The notes below the pieces were generated by a model. That model ran no database searches. It was not told the origin of the DNA and worked only from the letters and a program-made list of their open reading frames with translations. From the sequence record PZ379182.1: a stretch of 46,134 bases of DNA; one strand, written 5' to 3'. Numbering within the stretch: the stretch's first letter is position 1; each line of letters starts with the position of its first letter. Positions 1 to 44,050 of the stretch are shown here, piece by piece. Both the position numbers and the translations under genes were made by a program. Source of the DNA: a phage.

Positions 1-237
1 GTTATCAGAAGTCTTTTTACCGCTTGAACTATCAAGAGTGTCAACCTTAGAGTTCTTCACTTCAGCCTTTGCGCTGGAACTTGAATCAACCTTATTAGTT
101 ATCCCCACTCCAACCTTGTTATTCTCCGCACCTGCTTGAGCGCTAATCTCTGGCCTACTACCAATCAACCCGGTCAGCGCAGATGTTGCCGAGCAACCAG
201 AAAGTATAATTACCGCAGCAATTAACGCAGCCTTCAT
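1..237 (-). CDS. spanin, probable unimolecular (u-spanin-like) outer-membrane lipoprotein; N-terminal part only, truncated by window edge
   Basis: ATG at 235-237 overlaps the endolysin stop (ATGA); translation MKAALIAAVIILSGCSATSAL has a signal peptide with lipobox LSGC; sits last in the holin-endolysin-spanin order. Confidence 0.55.
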   Translation of the reverse strand, partial: MKAALIAAVIILSGCSATSALTGLIGSRPEISAQAGAENNKVGVGITNKVDSSSSAKAEVKNSKVDTLDSSSGKKTSDN

Positions 238-719: not shown

Positions 720-934
720 TACTTACTCCTAATATTGATAGCTGTCTTTAAATCTCCTGACTCTAGCGCCTTCCTAATCGCCTGGCTATCCTTAAACTTC
801 CAATAAGCTCCCCACAAACCGAAAACGACTAGAGCTATAAGACTGATTATTGCGATTGTCATTTGACCAGTTGCGGCACCAGTTACAGCAGCGCCGCCGG
901 TTGATGCCGTAGCGGCGTTAATTACTTCCCTCAT
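719..934 (-). CDS. holin (small membrane protein, pinholin-like)
   Basis: ORF 719..982 in track; internal ATG at 934 is preceded by AAAGGTGA RBS giving about 71 aa with two hydrophobic segments; directly upstream of the SAR endolysin. Confidence 0.55.
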   Translation of the reverse strand: MREVINAATASTGGAAVTGAATGQMTIAIISLIALVVFGLWGAYWKFKDSQAIRKALESGDLKTAINIRSK

Positions 935-1008
935 GTGATCACCTTTAAATGCTAATTTGTCAATACATAGTGCAAATATCATACATTAGGCGGTGGCAAA
1001 TTATAAGC

Positions 1009-1034
1009 AAAAAAGGGGAGCCAAAAGGCCCCCC
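1009..1034 (-). terminator. putative intrinsic terminator (imperfect GC hairpin plus T-run on minus strand)
   Basis: GGGGGGCC-TTTT-GGCTCCCC followed by TTTTTT when read on the minus strand. Confidence 0.4.
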
Positions 1035-1060
1035 GCATGCAAATCTATGTTTTTGATGTG

Positions 1061-1234
1061 TTAATCTGCGATAATAAATTCCACCAAAGAGCCATCAATC
1101 GGCGCAAGGATGTGAGTCATATCGTCACCGTAAACTTTGTAGTAACCGTCACCTAGAGACTCTGCGCTGTACGGCTGGTTTTCGGTGAACGGCAGTGTCT
1201 TTGAGTTGTTTTTAACGCAGTATAATTTAGTCAT
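1061..1234 (-). CDS. hypothetical protein (57 aa)
   Basis: ORF below the track size cut-off; AGAGGA RBS before ATG; preceded by a copy of the intergenic cassette. Confidence 0.35.
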   Translation of the reverse strand: MTKLYCVKNNSKTLPFTENQPYSAESLGDGYYKVYGDDMTHILAPIDGSLVEFIIAD

Positions 1235-1239
1235 TTTTG

Positions 1240-1311
1240 AATCCTCTGTTGTTTTCGATGTAGTAATTATGCCGGATTACTCCGGCGATTGTTTAGCAAT
1301 TCGTGCTATTT
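1240..1311 (-). promoter_or_regulatory. intergenic cassette copy (palindromic motif, GC hairpin, CGAAA box) upstream of a small ORF
   Basis: Minus strand AAATAGCACGAATTGCTAAA, then GCCGGAGTAATCCGGC hairpin, then CATAATTACTACATCGAAAAC, RBS, ATG. Confidence 0.6.
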
Positions 1312-1846
1312 ATTACGTGCATTACCAAAGCAGAGGTTCCATCAATATCACCATCTACAACATGAACGTCAATTTCTCTTGCGCAGACACCGCGAATGTA
1401 GGAGCGGCTATCTCCATCAAAAGTATAGCCAGGCCTAAAAAGTCTAATCAAAGTAACTTCAACCCCTGAATCAATGAGAGTATTAATCTCGCTAGCGAAG
1501 CCACCATCAGCACAGATATAGCAACCATCACCAAGTGATTGCGCTAGCCTTTTACCGAAAACATCATCACCAAAGACTGGCTTCATAACTGACTCACTAA
1601 TCCAAATCATAAATTCACGAACCGTCATTCCACCAAGAAATTCATGTGGTGATTCTTTGTACTCTCGGTCATCGTAATTCTTAATAAATTCATCAAACTC
1701 ATCGCTTGATAGTATTCCTTTTGCAACATTAAACATTGGTGACTTGAATGAAACCTTATCCTTGCAAATTCCAAGATTAACAATGATATCTGCAACTGTA
1801 TCTTTTCCAGCACCAGGGGTGCATTAAGGATGATTAACTTTTTCAT
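1293..1846 (-). CDS. P-loop kinase, polynucleotide-kinase-like; reading frame interrupted near the 5' end
   Basis: ATG at 1846 with GGAGA RBS gives MKKLIILNA in one frame; Walker A PGAGKDT and the rest (track ORF 1293..1736) lie in another frame; the shift maps to a CCCC run. Confidence 0.6.
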
Positions 1847-1847
1847 T

Positions 1848-2322
1848 TTATTCTCCGTGAGATTCGCAGTCTTTTGGTAATTCTTTATATTCACAAACTG
1901 ACATTACAGTATATCCGCAATTCCTTAGGTGACTGATAACATTAGGATTATCCTCAAAGATTATCACACTTGCTTTGTCACCATTACACAAATCATTTAG
2001 CCACATCTCTTTAATGATATAGTCATTTGCTGTTATCCAATCTACTCCTCATATATATTCCATCATAATTAATATTATTATACTGAAGCCATTCAAGCGT
2101 CATACATTCGACTTCGTCACTTCTTGAAGTCATGATGTAAACTGGCGATAACTCAGCTAACGCATTCATCATGTTTATCATTGGAATTATCGGTGAATCT
2201 CCAGAACAGGCTCTATTGTAATCACTCCAACTTGAAGTCAAGTGAAGGTCACTAGATGGTAAGAGGTGGCTTCTATGTTCATTGTTAGCAATAGTTCCAT
2301 CAATATCAAACACGTAAATCAT
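1848..2322 (-). CDS. HAD-family phosphatase (Pnk 3'-phosphatase-like); reading frame interrupted
   Basis: Track ORF 2023..2322 has HAD motif I (FDIDGTIA) and motif II (IMTSRS); a C-terminal part with a FEDNP motif continues in another frame to a TAA just before the kinase ATG. Confidence 0.5.
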
Positions 2323-2395
2323 TACAACTCCTCATCTCGTTATCGTTTATTCATTTTGCCTCAATCCTTTGAGGCTTTATTAACAAAAAGTGCTA

Positions 2396-3529
2396 TTACT
2401 TAAACATTTCAGGTCGGCAAGTGAATCGACCAACTTCACCGTACTCTGAGCTATAGATAATTACTGAGGCCTGACGATAAGAGCGATACCCTCCGTTTGC
2501 GCTGTACGCATCTTTAGCACCCAACTGACCGTGTGACTCATCAATTCCAAGATTACCCTCAGTAACCGTCTGATGATGATAATGGCCACTATGTGTATAA
2601 ACGTATTCAGCATTACCAAATGCTTTGCGATGGTCGCGCGCAAGAGTTGAAAGACGAGTGTCAGGCTTTCGCAATTCATGACCATGGCAGTAACCCAACA
2701 ATGTTTTACCAAACTCCGTCACATGAAGAGCGGCTGGTGAGGCATCAACATTTACACGAGGCTCATCCATGTAGAAGGCAGCCATTGCAGCTCGAAGCCA
2801 AATCATCCCAGAAAGGTCGTGGTTGCCTGGTATAATCTGAACCTCAACCTCTTTATGCTTGTCAAGCATCTTACTGACTGCGCGGCGAGTTGCACGAACA
2901 GCTACGTAGACAAGTTTATGATAACGGCTATCTTGATCAAGTACGTGCTTGCTGGTTGGAGTTACAGCTTCCATTCCATCCGAGTGAAGGAAGTCTCCAC
3001 CAATCAGTAATACGGCTTTTGATGAATTCGGGGCCTTAGCAACTGCATAATCAAAGTATTGGTTAAGCACTCGCTCTGCAATTTCTGTACTGTAGTTCTC
3101 CCCACACTCTGCATGGTGAGCCATTGCGCCAATATGCATATCAAACACGGGGTAGAGGCTCAAGGTGTCCTCATAGCTTGATTCACTGAGTGGTTTCGGA
3201 GTCTCTCGAGGGAGCTCATCTGTAAGCGCCTGAACAATCTGCTGAAGCATCTCTTCTTGTTTCTGTTCGTCGATGGAAGTTTTAACCCAGCGCAGCTTCT
3301 CATTACCATCCGCATCAATCATTGTTGAAGTGCCTTTAACAAGATAGCCATCAGGAACTAGCTTCTTGATGCCTTCATTACCATGCCCAACCCCACTCTT
3401 AGCCAACTTGCTACGACGAAGCTCAACGTTTCGAATGTTCATTCCGTACTTCTCTGCAATCGCCTTGTTAGTCAGGCCGTTTTTCAGTTCTTCGATCAAC
3501 TGCTCGTTGGTAATCTTTGCTGCTGCCAT
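2396..3529 (-). CDS. calcineurin-like metallophosphoesterase with N-terminal helix-turn-helix domain
   Basis: 377 aa; motifs DMH, GDFLH, GNHD, GH, GHYHH of the metallophosphoesterase superfamily; N-terminal HTH-like segment. Confidence 0.8.
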   Translation of the reverse strand: MAAAKITNEQLIEELKNGLTNKAIAEKYGMNIRNVELRRSKLAKSGVGHGNEGIKKLVPDGYLVKGTSTMIDADGNEKLRWVKTSIDEQKQEEMLQQIVQALTDELPRETPKPLSESSYEDTLSLYPVFDMHIGAMAHHAECGENYSTEIAERVLNQYFDYAVAKAPNSSKAVLLIGGDFLHSDGMEAVTPTSKHVLDQDSRYHKLVYVAVRATRRAVSKMLDKHKEVEVQIIPGNHDLSGMIWLRAAMAAFYMDEPRVNVDASPAALHVTEFGKTLLGYCHGHELRKPDTRLSTLARDHRKAFGNAEYVYTHSGHYHHQTVTEGNLGIDESHGQLGAKDAYSANGGYRSYRQASVIIYSSEYGEVGRFTCRPEMFK

Positions 3530-3610
3530 TTTTAAGTCCTTAGTTCATCACGATAAAATATAAGATAGTAAAGCTAACCAGTGGTGCTAATGCTACTAGG
3601 GCTACGTACC

Positions 3611-4463: not shown

Positions 4464-4658
4464 TTATACCTCATCAAATTTTTCGCCGAATTCGTTTTTA
4501 ACAGTTTCCAGATCATATCTGTAAGTTGGGCTAACTTCGAATGCATATGTGCAGTCTTCAATGTCAACCAAAACATAACCATCTTCAGTTACTTGCATCT
4601 CGTAGATGTAGCCAGTCTTGCGTGATTCGTAGAATTTACCAGTATAGATAGTAGCCAT
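4464..4658 (-). CDS. hypothetical protein
   Basis: 64-aa ORF; AGAGAGAAAG RBS region; preceded by intergenic cassette copy at 4680-4742. Confidence 0.5.
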   Translation of the reverse strand: MATIYTGKFYESRKTGYIYEMQVTEDGYVLVDIEDCTYAFEVSPTYRYDLETVKNEFGEKFDEV

Positions 4659-4679
4659 TTTCTTTCTCTCTTTGTGTGT

Positions 4680-4742
4680 TTCGTTTCGATGAGTTGATAA
4701 TACACCAACTCACCAATTCGTCTTTAGCAATTCGTGCTATTT
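4680..4742 (-). promoter_or_regulatory. intergenic cassette copy
   Basis: Minus strand AAATAGCACGAATTGCTAAAG ... TATTATCAACTCATCGAAACGAAAC then RBS. Confidence 0.6.
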
Positions 4743-5393: not shown

Positions 5394-7159
5394 AAGCTCG
5401 GAATCTTATCTCCACTATGAGCCATAACCTCATATGAAGCAACAATCCCTGACTGGTTCTTTGTTAACCCAATCTTGAAGTCATAAACTCGCAACCAGTC
5501 CCCCTTACGATACATTTTTCCTGATAACTTAGCATTCGGGTCTATGAGCATCTCACCACAGCATCTGCAATTCTTAGCTGCAATATCATTCTTCTCACCG
5601 CATCCTTTCTTAATGATAGCTTTGGTCTGTGGGTCCGCTATATCTTCACACAGTCTAAACTGAAAGAAGTGCTCACAGCGCTTCCAGTCAATTACGTTAT
5701 TGCAGCGCCTGGCTAATGGAGAGTTCACATAAGAGCATACCTGACAGATTCTTGGCTCATCACCACGCTTTCTTGCTGACCTAAATTTCTGGTCTTGTAC
5801 CTCTTCTATAATTGGGTCGAAGTAAAGTTCAGCCATATCATCAAGCGTTCCAGCAAAATCAAGAACAACATGGTCATCTTTTACCATTCCAGCTTCTTTG
5901 TGCTTCTTCTTAAGGATACGCATACCACGACCAAGCAACTGAATGAGTAGAGTAATGCTACCAACCTTCCTCAGGATAATGCTTGTATCCCACGGGGGGC
6001 AGTTTACGCCAGTTGTGAGGCAACCAATCTGAAATATGAACTTATATTCTCCGTTGGCTGCTTTCTCAAGTATCTCCCTACGCTTTTTCTCACCTGTAGA
6101 GTCAGTAACTATGGCCCAAGTAACACCTTTAGGTAGCGCGCTCAGCCGCTTCAATCACAATGCTGTTTTCCAGCGCAAGTTACCAATGCAGCATTCCTTG
6201 TTTCCATAAACTTAGCAGCAAATCCCATTATCTTTTGTGTCATCGTTTGGTTTTCGTGAATCTTTGCAGCCATCGCATCCATTTCTTTCTTGCTGAAGTC
6301 CTTAACCCCATCACTTCCATCAGGAGTGAACTCACTAAGGTCGTAGCCCAAATCACCAACTTCACCGTAGACAGTAGGAACAACGAACCCCAAGTCAACA
6401 AGGTAGCTGGTTGGCACTTGCATTACAGTTTTGCGCCAGAATCCACGGACATTTGGGTTACTAACTACAATGTGGTCGTTGTTACGGTACGGGCTACCAG
6501 TTAACCCAAAGATACGAAGTTCGCGACCGTACTTCTCCTTGCATCGACGCTTCATTTCGGTAATGATTAACGTGTATTGCGCGCGACCAGTGCCAAGCAA
6601 GCCCGGTATTCACACCATCCTTAAAGACCATCTCACCCTTCTTCGTGCTCATCTGCTCGAATGTTTCCTCATTCTCTTCAGCTTCTACGATATCCATATG
6701 GTCAACCATATGACATTCATCTATCGCAATAACGGCAGGAACATAGTCACCAAGGCCCTTAAACAAGCCGTTAGCAGCTGTGCCCTCACTAGCCACTATG
6801 GTTGGGTAGTAAACTGATTTAACGTTAAGGCCAGCGCAATAGACGCTATTACGGATGCCGAAGTTACGAAGCTCTTCTGAGTTCTGGCTGATTATCTCTG
6901 ACTGGCGAGAAAGAACCATATAAGGAAGCCCAAGCTGCTCCATGCGCTTACCAATCATAGCAAGAATAATTGTCTTACCCGCAGACACCGAGAGGTCTGC
7001 GATAAATGGGGCCTCGTACTTTCCAATAGCCTTTCCGATTGCATCAAATGTCACGCACTGGAACTCGTAAGGTGTTATCTCTCCAAACTGATAATCTTTC
7101 TGAATCTGTTTAATTCTTTCTTTATCGAAATTTGCAACCAGCTTCTCGATAGGCAACAT
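5390..7159 (-). CDS. superfamily-2 DNA helicase (DEAD/DEAH-box type); reading frame interrupted twice
   Basis: Track ORFs 6494..7159 (motif I SVSAGKT, motif II DECH), 6151..6600 (LTGSPYR, motif IV-like ALVTCAGKQH) and 5390..6154 (motif V TTGVNCP, motif VI QLLGRGMR) are consecutive parts of one helicase in different frames; the two downstream track ORFs begin at TTG right after stops in their own frame. Confidence 0.7.
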
Positions 7160-7176
7160 ATCTAAATTCCTATAAA

Positions 7177-7205
7177 AATTGTCTTGTAGCGTTTAATTGA
7201 GTACA
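7177..7205 (+). promoter_or_regulatory. candidate sigma70-type promoter for rightward regulator/primase operon
   Basis: TTGTCT, 17-nt spacer, TACAAT about 55 nt upstream of the 7261 ATG. Confidence 0.35.
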
Positions 7206-7260
7206 ATACTACCATCAAATCGGAATGACTTTTAACAAAAAATGCTATTGAGGTAATGAA

Positions 7261-7743
7261 ATGAGCGCAATTGACAAGCGAACCATTAACGGTAACAACG
7301 GAACAGTCCGCACCGAAGACAAAAAGCAACGGAAACGACCTTCAGGTTACTACGTTTTAAAAGATGAAGTAAGAGCCGGACTACGCGCACGGCTTGAGAT
7401 GATCCTTGATTTCTTCGGCACAAAGGCAAATATCGCAAAGCAGTTAAAGGTGACACCTCAGGCTGTAGAAGAATGGTTTAAGCGTGGGATGATTTCTGCG
7501 CGTGGCGCTCAGTTGTCGCACAACTACTATAAGCGAAATGGAGAAGGTTTTCGCGCTACATTCTGCCGACCAGATCTGCAATTCGACGGTAACGGGAAAC
7601 CGCTAACTCTACGTTGCAAGAAGCGTCATATGCTGCGTGTTGTTACTGAGGCTGAGCTAGCAACTAAACCAGAGTGTCGCTCATGGCGCAAGATTAAGGC
7701 CGCTAACGAAGCAGCACGAAAAGATAAAGAGCAAGGGAAATAG
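7261..7743 (+). CDS. helix-turn-helix DNA-binding protein (Cro/YdaS-like putative transcriptional regulator)
   Basis: 160 aa; segment TKANIAKQLKVTPQAVEEWFKRG typical of a Cro/CI-type HTH. Confidence 0.6.
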   Translation: MSAIDKRTINGNNGTVRTEDKKQRKRPSGYYVLKDEVRAGLRARLEMILDFFGTKANIAKQLKVTPQAVEEWFKRGMISARGAQLSHNYYKRNGEGFRATFCRPDLQFDGNGKPLTLRCKKRHMLRVVTEAELATKPECRSWRKIKAANEAARKDKEQGK

Positions 7744-7808
7744 CACGAATTGATAAACAGTGGCGCTATACATTGTGTATAGTGCCTTTATTGTTTATGG
7801 AGGTAACT

Positions 7809-8735
7809 ATGAGTCACCATGATAAGAGCGAAGTGATAGCAAAAATGAAGGGAATGTGGGGCGAATTCTACTCATCGAACCTTGGATGGACAAAGGAGAA
7901 TCTCAGCAAGAAACATGGTCCGTGCCCTTACTGCTTTGGCAGGGATAGGTTTCGCTTCACTGATGAGTTAGGTCAGGAAAAGGGAAATGGCGCAGCAATA
8001 TGCAACCAGTGCGGAAATGATTCTGGTGTTGGCTGGGTTATGAAATGCTCGGGAATGAGTTATAGCGAAACAATAGATACGCTTGGTGATTGGCTGAATC
8101 TCGTTCCAGTAGAGGTTATATCAAAAGCAAACAAAAGAGCATCTCGTACATCACCATACAAAATTGGCGCCAAGATTGATCACGAAAGATGCTTAGAGAT
8201 AATGGAAAGGACGGAAAGAGTAGAATTAACTCCGCTCAGTACATACGAGGGTATCTATAGCGAATTTGGTTTTGATGTTGGCAGGACGAAATCAGGCGAA
8301 CTAATACACGCAGTACCGTGCTTTATGGCTTATAGTGACGGCATATCAGATGATATGTGCAATGTAATGTTTATCAATGAAGATGGAGATGTTAGCTATG
8401 CTGCAAAAGATTATACTCGCCAGTCTGTTTCTATTATTGGCACCTTTAAAGATGATGAGTACGCTTATCTGGTCGATAATTGGATTGATGGTGTTCGCGT
8501 TCATCTTGCTACTGGAAATCGCTGCGTGCTTGTTTGCCACTCCAGCTACAACATGGAAATGGTTGCTTATGCGCTTAGGAACTACAAGTTACGCGTCGCT
8601 TGTACTCGCAACTCTTTTGATTTACTTGCCGTTGCTGACGATCGCAATCTTGATATTGTAATTCCAAATGATGGTAATTTTTTCAAGTCAGGCATAAGAA
8701 AGAGAATATACAAGGCAAACGAATTACTAGACTAA
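7809..8735 (+). CDS. DNA primase (zinc-ribbon plus Toprim-like domain)
   Basis: Track ORF 7773..8735; ATG at 7809 preceded by GGAGG; zinc-binding CPYCFGRDRF...CNQCG followed by primase-like core. Confidence 0.7.
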   Translation: MSHHDKSEVIAKMKGMWGEFYSSNLGWTKENLSKKHGPCPYCFGRDRFRFTDELGQEKGNGAAICNQCGNDSGVGWVMKCSGMSYSETIDTLGDWLNLVPVEVISKANKRASRTSPYKIGAKIDHERCLEIMERTERVELTPLSTYEGIYSEFGFDVGRTKSGELIHAVPCFMAYSDGISDDMCNVMFINEDGDVSYAAKDYTRQSVSIIGTFKDDEYAYLVDNWIDGVRVHLATGNRCVLVCHSSYNMEMVAYALRNYKLRVACTRNSFDLLAVADDRNLDIVIPNDGNFFKSGIRKRIYKANELLD

Positions 8736-8756: not shown

Positions 8757-8822
8757 ATACCTGAAAGATGATACAATCCACTTTAGCAATTAGTGCTACT
8801 TTACAAATGGAGACTTTACACA

Positions 8823-11877: not shown

Positions 11878-12528
11878 TTAGAATGTGTCGATTTCTTGAG
11901 ATTGTACTTCAACTTTTTCTTCTTGAACAGACTTTTGTGCAACCTGTTTAGGTTTTGCAGGATTGAAGCCGTTAGTTGCATTAGCCTGAATTTCTGCCTT
12001 ACGCTCAATGATGTGAGGTTCAATCACCAGCCAACCAGCTGAATCAAGAGACTGCTTAGCTTCTTTGTATACATCACGCAGGTCATCAAGAGTGTTGCAC
12101 TTAGCTAAATCTTTCTTAAATGAGTTGATACCCTTAACTGCAAGCTGACCATCATCATCTGCCTGGCTCAAGCCTAATGCCGCTGTAATTGCATAACGGC
12201 GAGCATATGTAAGTGATGAGCCGTAACCTTGAGCATCTTGCTTGCTGATTGGGACGATTGTCAGGAAGCTGACCCACTCTCCAGATTCTGCATGATAGAC
12301 AGTTGTTTCAACCTTAATTCTAGTTGTGGCTTCATCATCAATCATGCCTTGAAACATGACCAGGCCGCTATCTGCAAGGCCAGGCTCTACAGCCGCCAGT
12401 ACGTCTTCCAGGGTGGCGTACCTGTTCTTTAGGTGCGAGTTCTGCTTTGACTTTTCAGCCTTTGCAAACTTTGATTTGGCCTCAAATAAAGCCTTCAATA
12501 CTTGCTTGTTTTGATCTGAAGTTTTCAT
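11878..12528 (-). CDS. erf: ERF-family single-strand annealing recombinase
   Basis: 216 aa; conserved core with GYGSSLTYARRYAITAALGL motif; located with exonuclease and SSB. Confidence 0.7.
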   Translation of the reverse strand: MKTSDQNKQVLKALFEAKSKFAKAEKSKQNSHLKNRYATLEDVLAAVEPGLADSGLVMFQGMIDDEATTRIKVETTVYHAESGEWVSFLTIVPISKQDAQGYGSSLTYARRYAITAALGLSQADDDGQLAVKGINSFKKDLAKCNTLDDLRDVYKEAKQSLDSAGWLVIEPHIIERKAEIQANATNGFNPAKPKQVAQKSVQEEKVEVQSQEIDTF

Positions 12529-12539
12529 TAACTATCTCT

Positions 12540-12606
12540 CTTTCGTTTCAGTGGGGAAATCATACCTCACCTTTTGATTTTGTCTTTAGCAATTAGTGCT
12601 ATTTTA
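12540..12606 (-). promoter_or_regulatory. intergenic cassette copy between exonuclease and ERF genes
   Basis: Minus strand AAATAGCACTAATTGCTAAAG ... CCCCACTGAAACGAAAGAGAG; motif contains the exonuclease stop codon. Confidence 0.6.
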
Positions 12607-14155: not shown

Positions 14156-14309
14156 TCAAAGCGTAACTAGGCGTATACGATTTCCCGCTGATGCATATGG
14201 TATACATAGAGTTACATCGGTTACGCGTAACCAACAGCACGAATAGCTAAAACTAATCCGCAAAACCATGTATAGTTGGTCACACAAAAAAACGAGAGAG
14301 GATTTCAAA

Positions 14310-14999
14310 ATGGTTATCTGGTCTTTATTTGATGGTTCAGGGCTGGCTGTGAAAGATTGGGCCGAAGCTGGTCACGAGTGCTACTGTTTCAACTTTGATG
14401 AGTCTGACCACGGTAGTTACGGGGATTTAAATGCAAAATTTGAACATGAGAACATCACCTACGTTAATGCCTGGATAGATGGCAACTTCGACTTTGATGT
14501 GAAGCCTGATATCATTTTAGCGTTCCCGCCGTGTACGGATTTAGCCGTGAGCGGGTCAAGGCACTTTGAGCGAAAGCGACTGGTTAACCATAACTTCCAG
14601 ATTGAAGCTGCGGAAACATGTAAAGTTGCTTTTAACTTGGCTAATAAGTACGAAGTCCCATACATGATTGAGAATCCAATCAGCGTACTGTCATCACTCT
14701 GGAGAAAGCCTAATAAGACTTTCCACCCATATGAATACGGAGGCTATTTGCCGGAAGATGATTTACACCCGTTTTTTAGCGACCTAATAAAGCCAAAAGA
14801 CGCATATCCCAAGAAGACATGCATTTGGTATGGCAATGGGTTTAAATGGCCAGAGGCGATTCCTGTGGACGTTAACGATGGATTCTCTGACCAATACAAG
14901 AAGCTTGGTGGGAAGAGTAAGAAGACAAAGGTAATTCGCAGTCTAACTCCTCGCGGTTTTGCAAAAGCAGTCTTCATAGCAAATAGCACCAATTGCTAA
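14310..14999 (+). CDS. SAM-dependent DNA methyltransferase, cytosine-C5-like motifs
   Basis: Track ORF 14268..14999; ATG at 14310 with GAGAGGA RBS gives MVIWSLFDGSG (motif I-like), PPC-T-DLAVSG (PC catalytic-motif-like), ENP; short for a typical C5-MTase so specificity is uncertain. Confidence 0.5.
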   Translation: MVIWSLFDGSGLAVKDWAEAGHECYCFNFDESDHGSYGDLNAKFEHENITYVNAWIDGNFDFDVKPDIILAFPPCTDLAVSGSRHFERKRLVNHNFQIEAAETCKVAFNLANKYEVPYMIENPISVLSSLWRKPNKTFHPYEYGGYLPEDDLHPFFSDLIKPKDAYPKKTCIWYGNGFKWPEAIPVDVNDGFSDQYKKLGGKSKKTKVIRSLTPRGFAKAVFIANSTNC

Positions 15000-15060
15000 A
15001 GACAAATCTCAAGGATGAGATATCATTACTCCATTGAAACGAAACACACCTTCTAAGGAA
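14982..15060 (+). promoter_or_regulatory. intergenic cassette copy between methyltransferase and cor-like genes
   Basis: AAATAGCACCAATTGCTAAAG, ATCTCAAGGATGAGAT hairpin, TATCATTACTCCATTGAAACGAAAC. Confidence 0.6.
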
Positions 15061-15067
15061 TACGAAA

Positions 15068-15313
15068 ATGACTAACTTAATCAAACTTTCAATCATCGCA
15101 GCAGCAGCAATCATGATGGTGGGTTGTTCTTCTGCTCCGCGTCCTGACGGATGGTGTGCAACGCAAGCAAACGGCGTGTGCGTGGCTAAATGGGAAAATG
15201 GTGTGGTTGTACCGTCTGGTGAAGTTGATGTGCGATACGCTGGTATTGAGAGCAAGGCTGGCGGCGGTTACGGTGGCTCTGTTGCTGACCATGGGTCTAA
15301 GGAGTGGAAATAA
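15068..15313 (+). CDS. small lipoprotein, Cor-like superinfection-exclusion candidate
   Basis: 81 aa; signal peptide with lipobox MVGCSS; T1/phi80-type phages carry a small lipoprotein cor gene near tail genes. Confidence 0.5.
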
Positions 15314-25245: not shown

Positions 25246-25275
25246 TTTTCCTCCACTAGTAGCTAATAGCACCAA

Positions 25276-25840
25276 AAGTCAAAAACAATAAATCTCAGTA
25301 TGTATAATACATTAACACTTCGACTTTGGGGGTAAAATGTTTAAATATTTGTTTGATTATGATGGAATGAAATTGATATGGAAAAACCCAACATCACCTA
25401 GATTCACAAAGGGCGACGTTGCGGGAACTAAGCATAAGAGAGGATACATTCAAGTTTGCTTTAATAGGAAGCTATACCTTGCTCATAGGATAATATGGGA
25501 GATGCATCATGGCGAGATACCTGAAGGGATGCAGATTGACCATGTAAATCAGGACAAATCAGATAACAGGATTTCAAACCTAAGGCTAGTCACGCAGCAG
25601 GAAAACAAAAAGAACAAACCAAAGCAAGTAAGAAACTCTAGCGGAGTTAATGGTGTATCTTGGAATAAATCAAATGGAAAATGGCAGGTAAGGATAGGTG
25701 TAGATGGAAAAGATGTTCATCTTGGGTATTTTGATAACATTTCAGACGCTAAAAAAGCAAGATTCGATGCTGACTTTAGATTTAAATACCATGAAAATCA
25801 CGGTAACAAAAAGCGCCAGTAGGCGCTTTATTTTTTATCT
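25276..25840 (+). mobile_element. free-standing homing endonuclease cassette (promoter-like sequence, HNH-AP2 gene, terminator-like hairpin) inserted in the tail module
   Basis: TATAAT at about 25310 and GGGGGTAAAATG RBS upstream; AGCGCC-AGTA-GGCGCT hairpin plus T-run at the 3' end; opposite strand to every flanking gene. Confidence 0.6.
25337..25822 (+). CDS. HNH homing endonuclease with AP2 DNA-binding domain
   Basis: 161 aa; HNH motif region IDHVNQDKSDNRISNLRLVTQQEN and AP2-like GVSWNKSNGKWQVRIGVDGKDVHLGYF; antisense to the tail operon. Confidence 0.8.
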   Translation: MFKYLFDYDGMKLIWKNPTSPRFTKGDVAGTKHKRGYIQVCFNRKLYLAHRIIWEMHHGEIPEGMQIDHVNQDKSDNRISNLRLVTQQENKKNKPKQVRNSSGVNGVSWNKSNGKWQVRIGVDGKDVHLGYFDNISDAKKARFDADFRFKYHENHGNKKRQ

Positions 25841-26141: not shown

Positions 26142-26456
26142 TTAAATTTTTACCCTTTGTCCCGCTAACGCCTTCATGTATGAATCCATTAATGACGGAA
26201 CTGCGGCAGGGAAAAGGTTCGCGAACTCTTCTACGTTCTCATCGTTAAATGGTTCTTCTAAATCCCAATCAGAGCAGATTTCGTTAATCAATTCTTTGGT
26301 GCTGAAGTTCTCACGGTTAAGAATCTCCTGCAACTCAGATGATTTCTTGTGCTTAACTGTTAGCACTACTTCTGCATCATCGCCATTAGCTAACTGGAAC
26401 TTAACTGGAAGTTTAAAGTCAGGCAGCGCCTTAAGTGAAAGTTTAAATTTTGCCAT
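26142..26456 (-). CDS. tail assembly chaperone (lambda G-like)
   Basis: Track ORF 26142..26495; ATG at about 26456 preceded by AGGAGA; acidic protein between major tail and tape measure genes. Confidence 0.6.
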   Translation of the reverse strand: MAKFKLSLKALPDFKLPVKFQLANGDDAEVVLTVKHKKSSELQEILNRENFSTKELINEICSDWDLEEPFNDENVEEFANLFPAAVPSLMDSYMKALAGQRVKI

Positions 26457-26505
26457 CTCGTTATCTCCTTTGTTTGTGTTTGTTGATTGTAGCATAAAGT
26501 GCTAT

Positions 26506-26530
26506 CAATAAAAAACCCTCCGAAGAGGGT
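26506..26530 (-). terminator. intrinsic terminator after the major tail protein gene
   Basis: Minus strand CCCTC-TTCG-GAGGG followed by TTTTTTATT. Confidence 0.7.
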
Positions 26531-33957: not shown

Positions 33958-34311
33958 TTACTCGAATTTTACTTCGAACTTGATTGATGATGTTTTCACT
34001 CCATTAAGTGTTAACTGGCGAACCTCCCTTCTGACTTCATAAAATGCCTCTTTAGTTACTATGTCTTTGTTGATGAAGTATTTAATCCCAGCCTTTTCAA
34101 CTTTAAAATTATCACCTTTAACGACAAAATCGGTAGGCTCTATAACTTCGAAATCATAAACACTAAGATTAATTACGCCCAAATAGCCTTTATCATCCTT
34201 AACTTTTACGTATTCATTATTACTTCCAGGCGTTCTTGATAAGTCATAAATCTTACCAACGGTAAAATCAAAATAACCAGCTTTTTTATACCCTTTAAAT
34301 ACTGCTTTCAT
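33958..34311 (-). CDS. hypothetical protein inserted between terminase large subunit and portal (moron candidate)
   Basis: 117 aa, Lys-rich; own upstream cassette copy (34330-34386) and downstream hairpin. Confidence 0.5.
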   Translation of the reverse strand: MKAVFKGYKKAGYFDFTVGKIYDLSRTPGSNNEYVKVKDDKGYLGVINLSVYDFEVIEPTDFVVKGDNFKVEKAGIKYFINKDIVTKEAFYEVRREVRQLTLNGVKTSSIKFEVKFE

Positions 34312-34329
34312 TTTTTACTCCTCTCGTTT

Positions 34330-34386
34330 GCGTGAAGTAACTATAAGCCATCCTTGGCGGCGCGTCTTTAGCAAAACGTGCTATTT
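34330..34386 (-). promoter_or_regulatory. intergenic cassette copy downstream of terL
   Basis: Minus strand AAATAGCACGTTTTGCTAAAG, GCCAAGGATGGC hairpin, TTATAGTTACTTCACGCAAACGAGAGGAG. Confidence 0.55.
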
Positions 34387-37591: not shown

Positions 37592-38390
37592 CAAAACTCC
37601 TCAGTTATAAGCATCTTGCCACAATCTTTGCACTCGTAGAATGCACATGCTTTCACCAACTAATAGACTTGGTTTTGTTGACTCGTGGTACTTGCATCGT
37701 TTAGCGCTTTAATGTCAAAATCGTTAATGATTTGATGTGAACACGTAAACGTAGCGATGCTTGTGATTGATTTCTTTATTATTCATAAAGGCTATTCCCA
37801 TTCTGATCATGGCCTACGCGACATTTTCTATAACCAGCAATCCACACAAATTTGTCTCGAGCAATTAGTGTCGAAACCGGCCCCCACACTTGAGTAATCA
37901 GCGCTGCCACTACCTTATCATCTTTCTTCTTTGCGCCCAAGTTTGCCGTATTCGTCATTCAGCTTATCAGCCTGTCGCTTGACTGCGTTAAAGTATGCGT
38001 CGTCTAATCCGAACATTATTCATCATCCTCCTCGCATGCTATGAGACTATCGCAATTATCACGGCATCGCAAATGCCTTTGGTGCTTTAGCTATTCGTGG
38101 CTGTAAATCAAGTCAGCAATGACTTAACAAATTCGATCTGGAGTAACCATCTCATTCGCTTCGTATGGCTCTATGCAATCTCTTCGTTGTATGAATGAGT
38201 TGAACGTTATCATGGCAAATCCGATGCGCTGTCATGCAATTACGCAATTCGTGCGTATGCCATTTCTTATCTTCACGCTCTTTCCATAGATTTCAGTTAG
38301 CTCGTAAGTACATTCATGGCATCTTCGCCAGTCTTAGCCTCATCCATGCATCCGTGCAGGCCCACTGGCTTGGTGTTTCGTAGTTATCCA

Positions 38391-39329: not shown

Positions 39330-39544
39330 TCTTCGACCACCTTGTACTCGCCTTCTTCAAAACTAACCATCTGTCCTATTGATACTAACTCAGTATCACG
39401 AATCGCTCGAGCTGATAAGCTACCACACCCGAACCGACCGGTTACTTCTAATACGTCACCAACTCTTAAACCCGCATGTGCTTCAAGCTGTCAGAACGCC
39501 TTACTTCTGGTATGTAGTTCACGTCGATGAATTTTAATTTTCAT
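39326..39544 (-). CDS. hypothetical protein with an in-frame TGA at codon 18
   Basis: MKIKIHRRELHTRSKAF-TGA-QLEAHAGLRVGDVLEVTGRFGCGSLSARAIRDTELVSIGQMVSFEEGEYKVVEE read in one frame; coordinates approximate. Confidence 0.3.
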
Positions 39545-39770
39545 ATCTATACTCCATCTCGTTGTCGATGTGGTAATTATGCCGGATTTCTCCGGCAATT
39601 GTTTATGCAATGTCATGCTATTCACCGAGTTTCATCACGAAGAACATAACACTCAACACCTCTTCAAGAACGTCCAGCTGAGATTTCGCATCATTCGTAA
39701 TACTCATAAGCTCGAATATGCTTAACGCTGTTGAATTTTCCTGTATAGCTCATGTCCTGAACGTAATAAA

Positions 39771-40004: not shown

Positions 40005-40234
40005 TTCGTTTGTTCCAGGTAAGTTTTCATCTTGTTCAGTGAGTCTATTGCGTCATCAAGGTCTGTAATTACGTCCTTGTGGCCTCGTAAACCCATGCAT
40101 AGAAGCTTTTTGATTGCATGCTGACACGCCGGGTCTGTAACGTTGAACGCTGATAGCGTGCGATACACATCAACAATAGCACGCTCGCCATTAAGCCCGA
40201 TAATCTCTCTTTCATATTTGCTCCTTTCCATCAC
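40001..40234 (-). CDS. hypothetical protein
   Basis: 77-aa ORF; stop/start overlap with the downstream gene. Confidence 0.45.
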   Translation of the reverse strand: MMERSKYEREIIGLNGERAIVDVYRTLSAFNVTDPACQHAIKKLLCMGLRGHKDVITDLDDAIDSLNKMKTYLEQTK

Positions 40235-40307
40235 ATCCTCTTTTGCTTTGCTTCAATAAGGCCACTATATCAAATGGCCTTGCGGAAGGTTTAGCAATTC
40301 GTGCTAT

Positions 40308-40493
40308 TCAAAACTTAACATCAATTATGACTTCAACCATCTCCTGCCCAAGCCGGTAGGAGTCGCCCCAAAGAAGTAGTCCCATAAACTCATCCTTACT
40401 AAAAGTGTTGGCATTTACAGTTCTAAGATAGCCACGATGGATAACAGTATCGCCAATCTTAACTTCGCTCTTATGTACCATTTTAGTTTTCAT
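40308..40493 (-). CDS. hypothetical protein
   Basis: 61-aa ORF; stop immediately precedes a cassette motif copy. Confidence 0.45.
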   Translation of the reverse strand: MKTKMVHKSEVKIGDTVIHRGYLRTVNANTFSKDEFMGLLLWGDSYRLGQEMVEVIIDVKF

Positions 40494-40548: not shown

Positions 40549-40737
40549 TCAGTAGCAGGTAGCCAGGAAGTCGGCGATACCTTTTGAGGTTGCTTCCGGC
40601 ATACTACGTACTGCAACATCGTAACCAGCCTCAACCTTTGCAATCGCTGACTCTTCGTTGTATCCGAACATTGTCAGGATGGTGATTACGTTTTCTTTAT
40701 TCAGGACTTTAAGTTCTTTAGTGATGCGCTTAGCCAT
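40549..40737 (-). CDS. hypothetical protein
   Basis: Track ORF 40549..40809; ATG at about 40737 follows AAGGA and lies downstream of cassette copy 40745-40821. Confidence 0.45.
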   Translation of the reverse strand: MAKRITKELKVLNKENVITILTMFGYNEESAIAKVEAGYDVAVRSMPEATSKGIADFLATCY

Positions 40738-40744
40738 TTTCGTT

Positions 40745-40821
40745 TTCCTTTGTGCCTCTCGTTTCGATGAGATAATTATGCCATCCATGGCATTATATGC
40801 GTTAGGCAAAAAGTGCTATTT
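40745..40821 (-). promoter_or_regulatory. intergenic cassette copy
   Basis: Minus strand AAATAGCACTTTTTGCCTAA, TGCCATGGATGGCA hairpin, CATAATTATCTCATCGAAACGAGAGG. Confidence 0.55.
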
Positions 40822-41785: not shown

Positions 41786-42295
41786 AATCTAGCGTGGTAG
41801 GCGTGTATGATTCTTCGGAAGCGCACCTCATATACACACCATAACTTCGATAACGTGTATATCCAAATTGGCTCAGCAAGAATCAAAATCAACTTGTATG
41901 GTAGTCCATCCACCATTCATTCACCCCACATCGATCATTGCAAATTCTGCAACAATCAAAAACATCATTGCATTCGATGCAATATTGCTATATGTGCAAT
42001 AATGAGATGAATCATTGCAATAGCTGCAACAATCTATAAATCCAACGAATAGCACTTTTTGCTAATGCACAATCATTAGTAAGTTGCTACTATGTATTCA
42101 TCGAAACGGTGCTGGACTCTGAGTCACTTCCGAAAGGAACCAAAAGAGTGAACGACACCGCGCAATGTGAGGAAGCGTTACCTTACCCACCAAAGCGCCT
42201 TGCGGGTCCTTTTGATAGGATGCCGGGCCGGGTTTAAAATCCCGAGTTGTAGTGAGTACGTTGAAGAGATTTCGATAACAAGAAAACATAGAGAG

Positions 42296-42845: not shown

Positions 42846-43049
42846 ATGAAACTTCTTTGCACTAACATAATTAAAGACTTTAACGACGCCTTCAATAAGG
42901 GCTCTGAATACAACGCTACCGAGTTTAAAGATGATATGTGCCTTGTTACCGGCGAACGTCCACACAAGCATCACGACACGTTCCAGGCGCTTAAATGCCT
43001 TGATTACGTAATCATCCACGGCATCGCAACTTTTAAGGTGATTGAATAA
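42846..43049 (+). CDS. hypothetical protein
   Basis: 67-aa ORF; GAGGA RBS. Confidence 0.45.
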   Translation: MKLLCTNIIKDFNDAFNKGSEYNATEFKDDMCLVTGERPHKHHDTFQALKCLDYVIIHGIATFKVIE

Positions 43050-43213
43050 TGCTTTTACCATCTGATATAAACTATTTCGATCTGGAAATAATTAGTGCTT
43101 ACAGCGGAAAGGGTTGGCCTTGCGGGGACTGGTTTAACGAGGACCTGCTTGAGTCTCACGAGATTATGTTGAAGGCAATTGAGAAGGCCAGAAAAAATAG
43201 CACTAATTGCTAA
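43049..43213 (+). CDS. hypothetical protein (about 54 aa)
   Basis: Read by eye; 3' end overlaps a cassette motif and encodes NSTNC, as do two other genes. Confidence 0.35.
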   Translation: MLLPSDINYFDLEIISAYSGKGWPCGDWFNEDLLESHEIMLKAIEKARKNSTNC

Positions 43214-43270
43214 AACTCACCGCCACGGATGGCGTATATTTACTCCATCGAAACGAAAGAGAGCAAGAGA
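43193..43270 (+). promoter_or_regulatory. intergenic cassette copy
   Basis: AAAATAGCACTAATTGCTAAAA, CGCCACGGATGGCG hairpin, TATATTTACTCCATCGAAACGAAAGAGAG. Confidence 0.6.
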
Positions 43271-43272
43271 TC

Positions 43273-43392
43273 ATGTTCGACAACTTTTATGACGAGATGG
43301 AAGAGGCGGTTTTCATGGCGTCGCTAGATGGTAAGATTTACGGTTTAGTTCAGAAGTTTGATAAGATTGTTGTGCGTATTGTGCGCAAATAA
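43273..43392 (+). CDS. hypothetical small protein
   Basis: Track ORF 43207..43392 begins at TTG inside the cassette; ATG at 43273 follows the conserved CGAAACGAAAGAGAG box. Confidence 0.35.
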   Translation: MFDNFYDEMEEAVFMASLDGKIYGLVQKFDKIVVRIVRK

Positions 43393-43823: not shown

Positions 43824-43990
43824 AATTATACATTGTAAGTGGTTGCACACACTATGATGGAAGCGAAGTGATTGCCGCTTTCGATGAAGAATTCAAAGCA
43901 CAGGAGTTTAAATATAACAAAGAAATATCTTCAGAAAATCACTTTGACTACTACAAGATAGATTGCATCTTACTAAATAGCACTAATTGA
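43820..43990 (+). CDS. hypothetical protein (about 56 aa)
   Basis: Read by eye; ATGA overlap with upstream stop; ends in a cassette motif variant. Confidence 0.3.
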   Translation: MKLYIVSGCTHYDGSEVIAAFDEEFKAQEFKYNKEISSENHFDYYKIDCILLNSTN

Positions 43991-44050
43991 TAATGCATTA
44001 TAAGCGGCTATTGATATAATGGCCGCTCAGAAACAATGCGGAGAGAAGTA

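Follow-up and report, generated by a model that had tools for sequence, protein, structure and literature searches.

What does the short composite sequence do that recurs at the gene junctions of the phage DNA in record PZ379182.1, a stretch of 46,134 nucleotides (nt) referred to here, at its full length, as the window? The initial annotation had described a three-part cassette at positions 1,240 to 1,311 (a near-palindromic repeat, a short hairpin, and a box, followed by a ribosome-binding site [RBS] and a start codon) and had offered a phage-specific promoter, a regulator-binding site, or an RNA signal as its possible function. Our analyses suggest that these options are combined and split among the three parts, no single one of them accounting for the whole, and that the cassette is, on balance, probably a promoter for the host RNA polymerase (RNAP) that would depend on a phage factor bound at -42, that is, a promoter joined to an activator site. 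By megablast, the window comes from an Rtp-like phage of the Drexlerviridae (Braunvirinae), ~91% identical to Escherichia phage ES and ~78% identical to vB_EcoS_ACG-M12 (ACG-M12 below), and syntenic with Rtp and T1. Its map is a circular permutation of that of ACG-M12, mostly reverse-complemented: the genes from lysis to helicase lie at 1-7159 (-), those for the regulator, primase, and tail fiber at 7261-11351 (+), those for recombination at 11382-14240 (-), and those for structural proteins at 16306-36592 (-), while the small early genes form two arms that diverge from ~41500-42400. The only match of Rfam or ARAGORN in the window was a tRNA-Arg gene (anticodon CCU) at 37130-37205 (-).

The sequence of the repeat is already published for T1-family phages; its mechanism is not. 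The genome paper of phage TLS reported 18 intergenic 21-nt direct repeats (DRs; consensus aaATAGCACnnnTTGnTAAAA) that point the way transcription runs and lie ~76 nt upstream of start codons, with “similar repeats” in T1, Rtp, and Rogue1; only three sigma70-like promoters were found in TLS, and no RNAP or sigma gene (PMC11447400). As relayed there, the T1 genome paper speaks of “transcriptons” flanked by terminators, of RpoD promoters, and of “perhaps enhancers” (via PMC11447400). The copies in the window share the sequence, the orientation, and the ~76-nt distance to the start codon of the TLS DR, one copy (8782) being inverted. The TLS paper treats the repeat alone; new here are that a -10 hexamer follows it in a fixed 22-nt register, that it occurs in operator-like placements, that the hairpin has an RNA-strand bias, and that chimeras have arisen by recombination. 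We found no transcript map or binding study of any T1-like phage in the literature.

All three parts described at 1240-1311 were found on the minus strand, whose sequence in full is aaATAGCACGAATTGCTAAAcaatCGCCGGAgtaaTCCGGCATAATTACTACATCGAAAACAACAGAGGATTCAAAAATG: the repeat aaATAGCACGAATTGCTAAA, the letters caat, the hairpin CGCCGGAgtaaTCCGGC, and the box ATAATTACTACATCGAAAACAACAGAGGATTCAAAAATG. The cassette to which they belong is the following.

1232..1311 (-): cassette 1, with the DR at 1292-1309, the GNRA hairpin CGCCGGAgtaaTCCGGC, and the -10 hexamer CATAAT at 1266-1271 after a 22-nt spacer; predicted +1 at 1259; ATG at 1234, opening a gene for a 57-amino-acid DUF7244 protein, then holin and endolysin genes.

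The DR consensus in the window is ATAGCACnnnTTGnTAAA / ATAGCACNNNTTGNTAAA, with aaATAGCACnnnTTGnTAAAa as its 21-bp form. A search for ATAGCACNNNTTGNTAAA with at most 2 mismatches gave 16 matches in the window, compared with 0.56 +/- 0.72 (maximum, 3) in dinucleotide shuffles. These start at 1292, 2379, 4723, 7231, 7740, 8782, 12585, 14234, 14983, 26488, 34367, 40290, 40802, 42049, 43197, and 43977; 8 of the 16 are exact over the 14 specified bases, and the window repeats are identical to TLS DR sequences in Table S1 of PMC11447400. When gene junctions were set against gene interiors, as the initial annotation had proposed, all 16 matches lay at junctions in a window that is ~91% coding (rough binomial p ~7e-15), and the matches with 3 mismatches within genes came without the other two parts of the cassette and look like chance. 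Beyond the 16 there are three degenerate copies (25266, near 38085, and near 39595), and ~20 gene junctions of this T1/Rtp-like coliphage carry the cassette. Every position listed by the initial annotation was recovered, those near 38085 and 39595 with degenerate repeats; its list lacked the copies at 7740, 14234, 25266, and 26488. The comparison with T1, Rtp, and relatives that it had also proposed bore out the pattern, the same repeat and phased -10 being present across six genomes. The three-part cassette is real, highly non-random, and family-wide.

For the analyses that follow, 119 copies of the repeat (at most 2 mismatches) were drawn from the window, ACG-M12, T1, Rtp, ES, and TLS, and statistics on leader, hairpin, and gene context refer to 104 cassettes of the same six genomes. 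The best -10-like hexamer was sought 12 to 31 nt after TTGnTA, with random positions as control. The spacer was exactly 22 nt in 82 of the 119 repeats and 21 to 23 nt in 100 (control, 14%), and a hexamer of at least 5 bits was present at 81% of repeats versus 2.3% of controls. TATAGT (28), CATAAT (12), and TATAAT (10) were the commonest hexamers, with A2 and T6 near-invariant. The spacing of about 22 nt noted by the initial annotation was thus measured as 22 nt, and we agree with it that this excludes a standard -35/-10 promoter. A sequence logo of the 86 cassettes with a 22-nt spacer, the hexamer being numbered -12 to -7, held 1.3 to 2.25 bits per position over the repeat (-51 to -33), with the highest information at G-47, C-46, C-44, and G-38; no sequence information at -32 to -18; and then 0.9 bits at G-14, 1.8 at A-11, 1.8 at T-7, 0.7 at c-1, and 1.1 at A+1. 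The predicted start, C-1/A+1, stands at the optimal distance, 7 nt after the hexamer. The predicted transcript begins AtcgAAAc.Aaa.gagga and runs for a median of 25 nt to the start codon; an RBS, a start codon, and an open reading frame (ORF) of at least 30 codons follow 12 to 48 nt from the predicted +1 in 94 of 104 cassettes (control, 11%). From the start of the repeat to the ATG these distances add up to ~16+22+6+6+25 = 75 nt. Phasing and logo, computed directly, support the view that part (iii) opens with a genuine sigma70-type -10 hexamer, after which come its discriminator, a start at C-1/A+1, and the initial bases of the transcript.

No -35 element accompanies this hexamer: the best match to TTGACA averaged 2.9 of 6 bases, versus 2.5 at random positions. 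A TGn extension is present in 39 of the 104 cassettes and G-14 in 74, and 65 have neither TGn nor a -35. The core of the repeat is a dyad, TAGCA-N5-TGCTA, at ~-49 to -35 and centered at -42, coordinates that rest on the predicted start site; for comparison, a dyad of the class II or Mor type that replaces a -35 is centered between -41.5 and -43.5. Part (i) behaves as a regulator site rather than as a displaced -35, because it would lie at -51 to -33, centered at ~-42, and recurs in operator-like positions at other promoters. An RNAP or sigma gene of the phage's own is annotated neither in ACG-M12 and Rtp nor in the TLS paper (PMC11447400), and a Pfam scan of 30 other small ORFs of the window returned no DNA-binding, sigma, or polymerase domain. 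The “phage-specific promoter” of the initial annotation therefore stands as a promoter with a sigma70-type -10 and can only mean a host RNAP promoter that needs a phage factor, since no phage RNAP or sigma factor was found.

Several known elements were tried on the cassette and rejected. Read as a standard -35/-10 promoter, it goes unrecognized: a consensus scan gave no more sites than in shuffles, and the -35 match is random-like. The sigma54 consensus is TGGCAC-N5-TTGC with an invariant GG; the repeat, TAGCAC-N3-TTGC, has AG for GG and a spacing 2 bp too short. The likeness of TACCCCATCG to the sigma32 -10 (CCCCATnT) was treated as a coincidence, the run of C occurring only in a subset of cassettes and no CTTGAAA being phased with it. 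None of the consensus sequences of IHF, CRP, FNR, or Fis, compared by eye, fits the repeat. An UP element, an A/T-rich tract at -59 to -38 bound by the alpha-CTD (the RNAP alpha subunit's C-terminal domain), is at odds with the top information at the G/C positions G-47, C-46, C-44, and G-38.

What the repeat does at other promoters bears directly on its nature. Fifteen repeats come without a phased -10, and they are not random leftovers. The sites in the window on which this section relies are as follows.

7157..7250 (-): helicase cassette, without a hairpin; DR at 7231-7248, within the leader of the divergent regulator gene; -10 TAGTAT at 7206-7211, spacer of 21 nt; ATG at 7159.
7179..7207 (+): regulator promoter, canonical sigma70 TTGTCT-17-TACAAT, with the -10 at 7202-7207.
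7261..7743 (+): gene for the candidate DR-binding protein, a 160-amino-acid “transcriptional regulator” of phrog_2856.
7738..7811 (+): primase cassette; DR at 7740-7757 overlapping the regulator stop codon; hairpin of 11 bp at 7762-7786, then TTTATTGTTT, a true terminator shape that encloses the -10 TATAGT at 7778-7783; ATG at 7809.
8769..8799: inverted DR, at 8782-8799 in the minus-strand sense, after an extended -10, TGaTACAAT, at 8769-8777 (+); tail-fiber ATG at 8823.
26454..26507 (-): DR remnant at 26488-26505, without a phased -10; its right half-site lies within an extended -10, TGcTACAAT.

The copy at 8782-8799 had been described as inverted relative to its downstream gene, and so it is. 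Exactly 4 nt separate the -10 of the tail-fiber promoter (TGnTACAAT in Rtp-like phages; TTGCAA-17-TGaTAAAAT in T1) from this inverted repeat in the window, ACG-M12, T1, Rtp, and ES, and the repeat covers the predicted start site; in the window, the extended -10 promoter stands directly 3' of the terminator of the primase gene. Upstream of the major capsid gene of T1 and TLS, an inverted repeat makes up the spacer of a canonical promoter (TTGACG-16-TATTAT and TTGAAC-16-TATATT, respectively). Two further genes, terS (T1 only) and a J-like tail gene (T1 and TLS), have a co-directional repeat right next to the start codon. Upstream of the regulator gene lies a canonical promoter of the form TTGnnn-17-TAnnnT in the window, ACG-M12, T1, Rtp, and TLS; in these same five genomes its -10 overlaps the -10 of the helicase cassette on the opposite strand (by 2 bp in the window), and the repeat of the helicase cassette lies in the regulator leader, 12 to 15 nt before the regulator ATG. 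With the two hexamers overlapping (7202-7207, +; 7206-7211, -), the regulator and helicase promoters stand face to face, and therefore only one of them would be occupied at a time. The same repeat, asymmetric flanks included, both at -42 of promoters without a -35 and over promoters with recognition elements of their own would be the signature of a transcription-factor site with two outputs, and these placements, the variety of which was read off directly, argue against a contact with polymerase or an UP element. Protein binding, and activation as opposed to repression at each class of site, we infer from such placements, as we do the start sites from the logo.

Two observations touch these promoters. 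The capsid-promoter repeats lie at ~15062-15090 in T1 and ~15020-15048 in TLS and are followed, before the start codon, by a terminator-shaped hairpin; this layout resembles lambda PR'-qut-tR' and is absent from the region upstream of the capsid gene in the window (30122-30270). In addition, a consensus extended -10, TGaTATAAT, at 36620-36628 (-) stands directly after a terminator (36647-36663) and 28 nt before the terS start (36592); together with the same arrangement at 26488 and 8769, late genes here seem to use extended -10 promoters just after terminators.

The regulator is the only recognizable transcription factor of the window. Its 160 amino acids matched phrog_2856, “transcriptional regulator,” at 1.6e-83, whereas Pfam gave only subthreshold matches to P22_Cro and YdaS and did not place it in the Mor/C family. 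Homologs were found only in Drexlerviridae-type genomes of ~45-52 kb (825 phage records, 113 protein clusters), and the gene is a core gene of this phage family only. An AlphaFold model (pLDDT, 87) has a helical core whose best Foldseek matches are the all-alpha Cro proteins of Xfaso1 and N15 (TM-score to target, 0.66-0.73; E ~0.1); a basic N-terminal arm, modeled with low confidence, and a conserved C-terminal extension flank it. The invariant residues fall in the arm, DKRxxNGNNGxxRGxDxxxR, which is predicted to be disordered and is basic, and in the C-terminal part, G(F/Y)RA..R(P/F)D..FD.NGK..C, where C119 is invariant and C102 nearly so. Two lines of support were tried and given up. Conservation of the predicted recognition helix would have favored this protein as the binder, but T1, TLS, Rtp-like phages, and Vc1 differ in the helix and not in the repeat, which weakens the assignment. 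Covariation of regulator and repeat could not serve either: the genomes with the most distant homologs (Vc1, at ~50% identity, and a Citrobacter Tlsvirus) carry the same repeat, the family being too uniform for such a comparison. We regard the regulator as a serious candidate for the protein that binds the repeat, if one that stops just short of being probable.

Part (ii), the hairpin, follows rules of its own. The 40 nt from the repeat to ~+8 were folded, with shuffles and random 40-mers as controls. The mean z was -2.5, with 59% of cassettes below -1.5, compared with -0.03 and 11% for random 40-mers; the hairpins of the initial annotation are hence real yet heterogeneous, a significant one lying beside or around the -10 in 61 of 104 cassettes and none in the other 41%. 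The mean minimum free energy was -9.4 kcal/mol for the sense strand versus -8.05 for the antisense strand (Wilcoxon p = 4e-4), and strand-neutral best stems contained 59 G·T versus 19 A·C pairs (438 versus 420 in random genomic 40-mers; G·T fraction in composition-matched shuffles, 0.44, p = 1.7e-8). Stems differ in sequence among copies, which amounts to paralogous compensation, and they differ in position, 15 ending before the -10 and 43 placing their 3' arm within the discriminator or among the first bases transcribed, in many cases through pairing of GGATGG.. with ..CCATC. The recurring AGGAT loop of the initial annotation exists as a recurring loop motif, but the actual motif is GGATG(G), complementary to the (C)CATC that opens the downstream box. 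Among orthologs, compensatory changes are anecdotal only (GGGGTA/TACCCC versus GGGATA/TATCCC upstream of erf), and some orthologous cassettes have lost the hairpin wholly. Where a co-directional ORF ends at the repeat, 65% of cassettes have a significant hairpin, compared with 32% of the rest (p = 4e-4); cassettes that come first in an operon retain repeat, -10, and box and mostly have no hairpin. A U tract, defined as 4 or more T within the best window of 8 nt 3' of the stem, follows 14 of the 61 strong hairpins. Clear terminators include the hairpin between the regulator and primase genes, at 7762-7786 and followed by TTTATTGTTT, and several T1 hairpins annotated as such in GenBank directly after repeats. 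No Rfam family matches the cassettes. Rejected, too, was a DNA cruciform that presents the -10 or shortens the spacer: G·T exceeds A·C, and extrusion would leave a spacer of ~6 bp. These data support the hairpin as a sense-strand RNA element that is tied to the end of the upstream gene and is not an obligatory component of the promoter; being selected in RNA of the gene direction, it is therefore read from upstream. Hairpins without a U tract would more likely be attenuators or stabilizers of 3' ends.

At 43221-43250, and in many cassettes of the relatives, GGATG(G) just 5' of the -10 is complementary to (C)CATC at the predicted start, and some cassettes could therefore form either of two mutually exclusive hairpins, CGCCAcggaTGGCG or GGATGG...CCATC. 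Outside the cassettes, strong hairpins with T runs on both strands lie at 11354-11373, 45978-45994, and 8734-8751, at convergent or tandem meeting points of gene blocks, and look like bidirectional terminators.

The remaining cassettes and degenerate copies of the window are given here.

2320..2398 (-): cassette; DR ATAGCACTTTTTGTTAAT at 2379-2396; hairpin GCCTCAaaggaTTGAGGC; weak -10 CAAAAT at 2353-2358; ATG at 2322 of the polynucleotide kinase gene, frameshifted in the window.
4656..4742 (-): cassette; DR at 4723-4740; 14-bp hairpin rich in G·U around the -10 TATTAT at 4697-4702; predicted +1 at 4690; ATG at 4658; a chimera made from two phage ES cassettes, which cross over within the CATCGAAAC box.
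12526..12604 (-): cassette; DR at 12585-12602; -10 TATGAT at 12559-12564; predicted +1 at 12552; ATG at 12528 of the gene for an Erf-like recombinase.
14232..14312 (+): cassette; DR ACAGCACGAATAGCTAAA at 14234-14251, 2 mismatches; -10 TATAGT at 14271-14276, spacer of 21 nt; ATG at 14310.
14981..15070 (+): cassette; DR at 14983-15000, encoding ..NSTNC* of the upstream gene; hairpin ATCTCAaggaTGAGAT; -10 TATCAT at 15021-15026; ATG at 15068 of a lipoprotein gene, then a membrane protein gene.
25264..25339 (+): degenerate cassette; DR-like ATAGCACCAAAAGTCAAA, 3 mismatches; -10 TATAAT after 21 nt; upstream of the HNH endonuclease gene 25337-25822 (+), an antiparallel insertion in the tail module.
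34309..34386 (-): cassette; DR at 34367-34384, in which the large terminase gene has its stop codon; -10 TATAGT at 34340-34345, spacer of 23 nt; ATG at 34311 of a virion protein gene.
38014..38104 (-): degenerate copy ACAGCCACGAATAGCTAAA; hairpin GGCATttgcgATGCC; GATAAT after 27 nt; ATG at 38016; the ES ortholog is a regular cassette.
39542..39622 (-): degenerate copy AATAGCATGACATTGCATAAA; hairpin GCCGGAgaaaTCCGGC; -10 CATAAT at 39576-39581; box CATCGACAACGA; ATG at 39544.
40229..40309 (-): cassette; DR at 40290-40307; hairpin AAGGCCAtttgatatagTGGCCTT with the TGn-extended -10 TATAGT (40264-40269) in its loop; ATG at 40231.
40735..40821 (-): cassette; DR at 40802-40819, 2 mismatches; hairpin TGCCATggATGGCA; -10 CATAAT at 40775-40780, spacer of 23 nt; ATG at 40737 of a DUF7421 gene.
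42047..42110 (+): cassette, the first of the rightward early arm; DR at 42049-42066; -10 TACTAT at 42088-42093, spacer of 23 nt; box CATCGAAACGG; a long leader with no adjacent start codon.
43195..43275 (+): cassette; DR at 43197-43214, encoding ..NSTNC*; hairpin CGCCAcggaTGGCG; -10 TATATT at 43235-43240; box CATCGAAACGA; ATG at 43273.
43975..44053 (+): cassette; DR at 43977-43994; hairpin AAGCGGCtattgatataatgGCCGCT around the TGn-extended -10 TATAAT at 44015-44020; ATG at 44051 of the gene for a DNA helicase/DUF3987 protein.

The long leader of the first rightward cassette holds, at 42100-42160 (+), a GNRA-loop hairpin, cTTCCgaaaGGAAc, and the counterparts of this cassette in ACG-M12 and Rtp are followed by similar sequence. 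Several genes of the window look frameshifted relative to ACG-M12, namely the helicase homolog at 5160-7159 (-), in four frame segments, and the polynucleotide kinase gene at 1848-2322 (-), in two; the small ORF after the 39595 cassette (~39500-39544, -) carries an additional base that ES lacks. Such genes may be real pseudogenes, or else the indels come from sequencing or assembly. As to relatives, ~20 records labeled “Campylobacter phage” and a “Pseudomonas phage PsgS01F” fall in this coliphage group, with 78-80% DNA identity over most of positions 1-8000, and the regulator of A110b is 95.6% identical to that of the window; the Campylobacter and Pseudomonas host labels are probably wrong or reflect contamination.

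Two further properties bear on how cassettes move between genes. One is that the repeat ends the gene before it. Upstream stop codons fall at three offsets: +1, the TAG of aTAGcac (34 cases); +14, the TAA of ttgcTAAa (15 cases); and -3/-2, a TAA just before the repeat (19 cases). The repeat thus offers a stop codon in all three frames. As the initial annotation had noted, it also encodes the C terminus NSTNC in three genes, 1293..1736 (-), 14268..14999 (+), and 43049..43213 (+); a fourth gene ends in NSTN*. The other property is recombination at the cassette. The window cassette with its DR at 4723-4740 equals the ES cassette at 33924 up to CATCGAAACGAAAC and from there on the ES cassette at 34178, and the intervening ES gene is absent; this proves the cassette at 4740 to be a chimera of two ES cassettes. 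At 26488 only the remnant of a repeat is left, and a small gene of ES, ACG-M12, and Rtp is missing there. Cassettes, which make up 4% of the window, hold 14 of 36 homology breakpoints with ES, 10 of 34 with Rtp, and 9 of 35 with ACG-M12, an enrichment relative to the window as a whole. In the window, ACG-M12, Rtp, ES, T1, and TLS alike, each HNH endonuclease gene comes with a cassette of its own, which suggests that the cassette travels with, or attracts, homing endonuclease genes.

We propose that the cassette is a compact gene-boundary module, built in four layers, for the host sigma70 RNAP. In the first, aaATAGCACnnnTTGnTAAAa would be a protein-binding site with a 5+5-bp dyad core, TAGCA-N5-TGCTA; an activator bound at ~-51 to -33 (center, ~-42) would replace the -35 contact upstream of a good -10. 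Its most likely binder would be the Cro-type helix-turn-helix (HTH) protein encoded at 7261-7743, read from a canonical sigma70 promoter of its own, and one protein would then switch many promoters on and a few off, namely at the regulator leader, the tail-fiber start, and the capsid spacer of T1 and TLS. In the second layer, transcription would start at C-1/A+1, 7 nt past the hexamer, and yield an A-rich leader of ~25 nt, AUCGAAACGA..GAGG, before the start codon. The third would be the hairpin as the 3' end of the preceding gene in RNA read from upstream: with a U tract behind it, the hairpin would be a terminator, and otherwise an attenuator or stabilizer; its overlap with the promoter would come solely from the shortness of the space. 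In the fourth, the repeat would supply stops in three frames and the cassette its own promoter, leader, and RBS, making it a portable joint for gene gain and loss by homologous recombination.

Whether the bound protein would activate at all is where the main rival to this model departs from it. The cassettes could be intrinsically active extended -10 promoters and the repeat an operator only, through which a shut-off repressor silences early genes, middle genes, and the gene that encodes it, along with some late promoters. TGn in 39 and G-14 in 74 of the 104 cassettes mean that some could work without a -35; the repeat sits in classical repression positions at the regulator, tail-fiber, and T1/TLS capsid promoters; the regulator has a Cro-like fold, and Cro proteins repress; and stoperators were suggested by the TLS authors (PMC11447400). 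Even so, we judge a repressor-only role unlikely. An operator needs no fixed 22-nt register, yet 82 of 119 copies have one, the 65 cassettes with neither TGn nor -35 would be very weak unaided, and cassettes drive lysis, replication, and early genes alike, so that a common shut-off would make little temporal sense. The stoperators of L5, moreover, serve the lysogenic repressor of a temperate phage, whereas TLS is described as virulent in its genome paper (PMC11447400), and the annotations of ACG-M12 and Rtp include neither an integrase nor a lysogeny repressor. Nor do we find it probable that polymerase itself reads the repeat, whether as a displaced -35 (TTGnTA) with a UP-like A tract or after remodeling by a small phage protein. 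TTGnTA does resemble TTGACA, A runs flank the repeat, the TLS authors mention UP elements, and many small early ORFs have no known function. What makes such an element improbable is that the most informative positions, G-47, C-46, and G-38, are not A/T, that the dyad and the conserved inverted and promoter-internal copies fit an autonomous protein site, and that the box of T4 MotA lies at -30 and not at -42. The 22-nt spacer also falls outside the 17 +/- 1 bp of sigma70 (PMC4390567).

That the cassette is primarily an RNA signal, its repeat and hairpin serving for antitermination like a nut site, for processing, or for attenuation, and its “-10” belonging to an RNA motif, would agree with the clear sense-RNA signature of the hairpins, with the transcription of every repeat from upstream in tandem arrays, and with the true terminator shapes of some hairpins, several T1 ones being annotated as terminators in GenBank. 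It is nevertheless highly improbable as the main function: the hexamer obeys sigma70 -10 rules in a fixed register, while the hairpin moves and is missing from 41% of cassettes; loops and stems have no sequence conservation, unlike boxB; first-in-operon cassettes mostly lack a hairpin and yet have repeat, -10, and box; and no Rfam family matches. A mobile or recombination module like the promoter/stem-loop (PeSL) cassettes of T4-type phages, spread by homologous recombination and by hitchhiking with ORFan and HNH genes and having no regulatory ligand, would explain the chimeric cassette with its gene missing relative to ES, the remnant with a missing gene at 26488, the breakpoint enrichment, and the HNH genes with cassettes of their own in six genomes. 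Recombination needs homology, however, and not a position-specific dyad or an exact -10 register, and subfamilies with proteins only ~50% identical share one invariant repeat next to a variable spacer, which indicates selection on the repeat itself. Without a ligand, the module is thus a remote prospect; as a description of how cassettes spread, it is compatible with activator-dependent promoters and not an alternative to them.

A number of points weigh against the activator model as we favor it. The 39 cassettes with a full TGn extended -10 could fire without an activator. The repeat in the regulator leader may be a by-product of a divergent intergenic region of only 100 bp, and it is not obvious why a factor made early should repress late-gene promoters, at which operator-like copies lie. 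The recognition helix of the candidate binder varies over an invariant repeat, as noted above; 47 of the 61 strong hairpins have no U tract, so that “terminator” fits a minority only; and the breakpoint counts lack their comparison with ordinary junctions. In the TLS paper, finally, the function of the repeat is an open question of T1-like phages, for which stoperators, enhancer-binding sites, and UP elements are offered (PMC11447400). A more far-reaching version of the model can be put forward only tentatively and is, as a whole, rather doubtful: the regulator, possibly through its basic N-terminal arm, would read the repeat as the master switch of the Drexlerviridae, activating ~20 promoters without a -35 from -42 and repressing its own and several late promoters; its titration by replicating genomes would time the late switch; and the nested hairpin and all-frame stops would make the cassette a portable unit that drives mosaicism.

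Similar solutions are known. At lambda OR, cI bound at OR2 (center, -42) activates PRM and represses the divergent PR, and class II CRP and FNR sites have a similar position. The cassettes resemble this system in a site centered at ~-42 that abuts the -35 position, in a regulator promoter and a divergent promoter that share one site, and in a Cro/cI-type HTH protein with an N-terminal arm; they differ in belonging to a virulent phage without lysogeny, in having one site per promoter instead of tripartite operators, and in -10s that overlap face to face. In T4 middle promoters, the MotA box lies at -30, 11-13 bp from the -10, and AsiA appropriates sigma; a phage factor replaces -35 recognition there, as it would in the cassettes, but the distance to the -10 is 22 nt here. 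N4 promoters for the virion RNAP have a DNA hairpin just upstream of +1. A short hairpin near +1 is common to both; in the cassettes it has the G·U bias of RNA, and no phage RNAP gene was found, which sets them apart from N4-type promoters. A further parallel in promoter layout is in phage Mu, where Mor acts at Pm through two 5-bp inverted repeats in a 16-bp element that is centered at -43.5 and replaces the -35 (PMC4390567), and where the late promoters activated by C have a -10 and no typical -35 (PMC2582627). Like the cassettes, these are sigma70 promoters with a recognizable -10 and no -35; the candidate here differs from Mor and C in its predicted Cro-type fold, with no Pfam match to Mor, and it would bind at ~20 target promoters per genome versus one to four. 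The PeSL cassettes of T4-type phages are units that join an early promoter to a stem-loop terminator and mediate modular shuffling (PMC2839356, PMC4122927). They share with the cassettes a repeated promoter plus stem-loop at junctions of small non-essential genes, a proposed attenuation of upstream transcription, and indels and chimeras by recombination, but they have a consensus -35/-10 early promoter with an AT-rich upstream region and a stem-loop outside the promoter, where the cassettes have no -35, the repeat in its place, and a nested hairpin; the parallel is functional only, the sequences being unrelated and the phage family different. Like the DR, the stoperators of L5 repeat one asymmetric site many times in short intergenic regions, in line with transcription (PMC11447400). 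They differ as repressor roadblocks of a temperate phage without a promoter register, whereas the 22-nt register of the -10 is exact here, and the DR thus does not qualify as a stoperator.

T1-like phages are abundant, are notorious contaminants of fermenters, and are common candidates for phage therapy, yet their transcription program is essentially unknown, and annotators find only a handful of sigma70 promoters per genome. The present analysis turns a stated open question about the repeat into a specific, testable model. If the repeat with its phased -10 is the main promoter class of these phages, most of their transcription units would become annotatable from sequence alone; if the model is true, a single regulator would be a target for genetic dissection or for blocking infection. 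For engineering, the cassette would also be an expression unit that is compact and portable and depends on a factor. A hairpin nested in the promoter, together with stops in three frames, would indicate to what degree gene boundaries can be compacted and may explain where the members of this family gain and lose genes.

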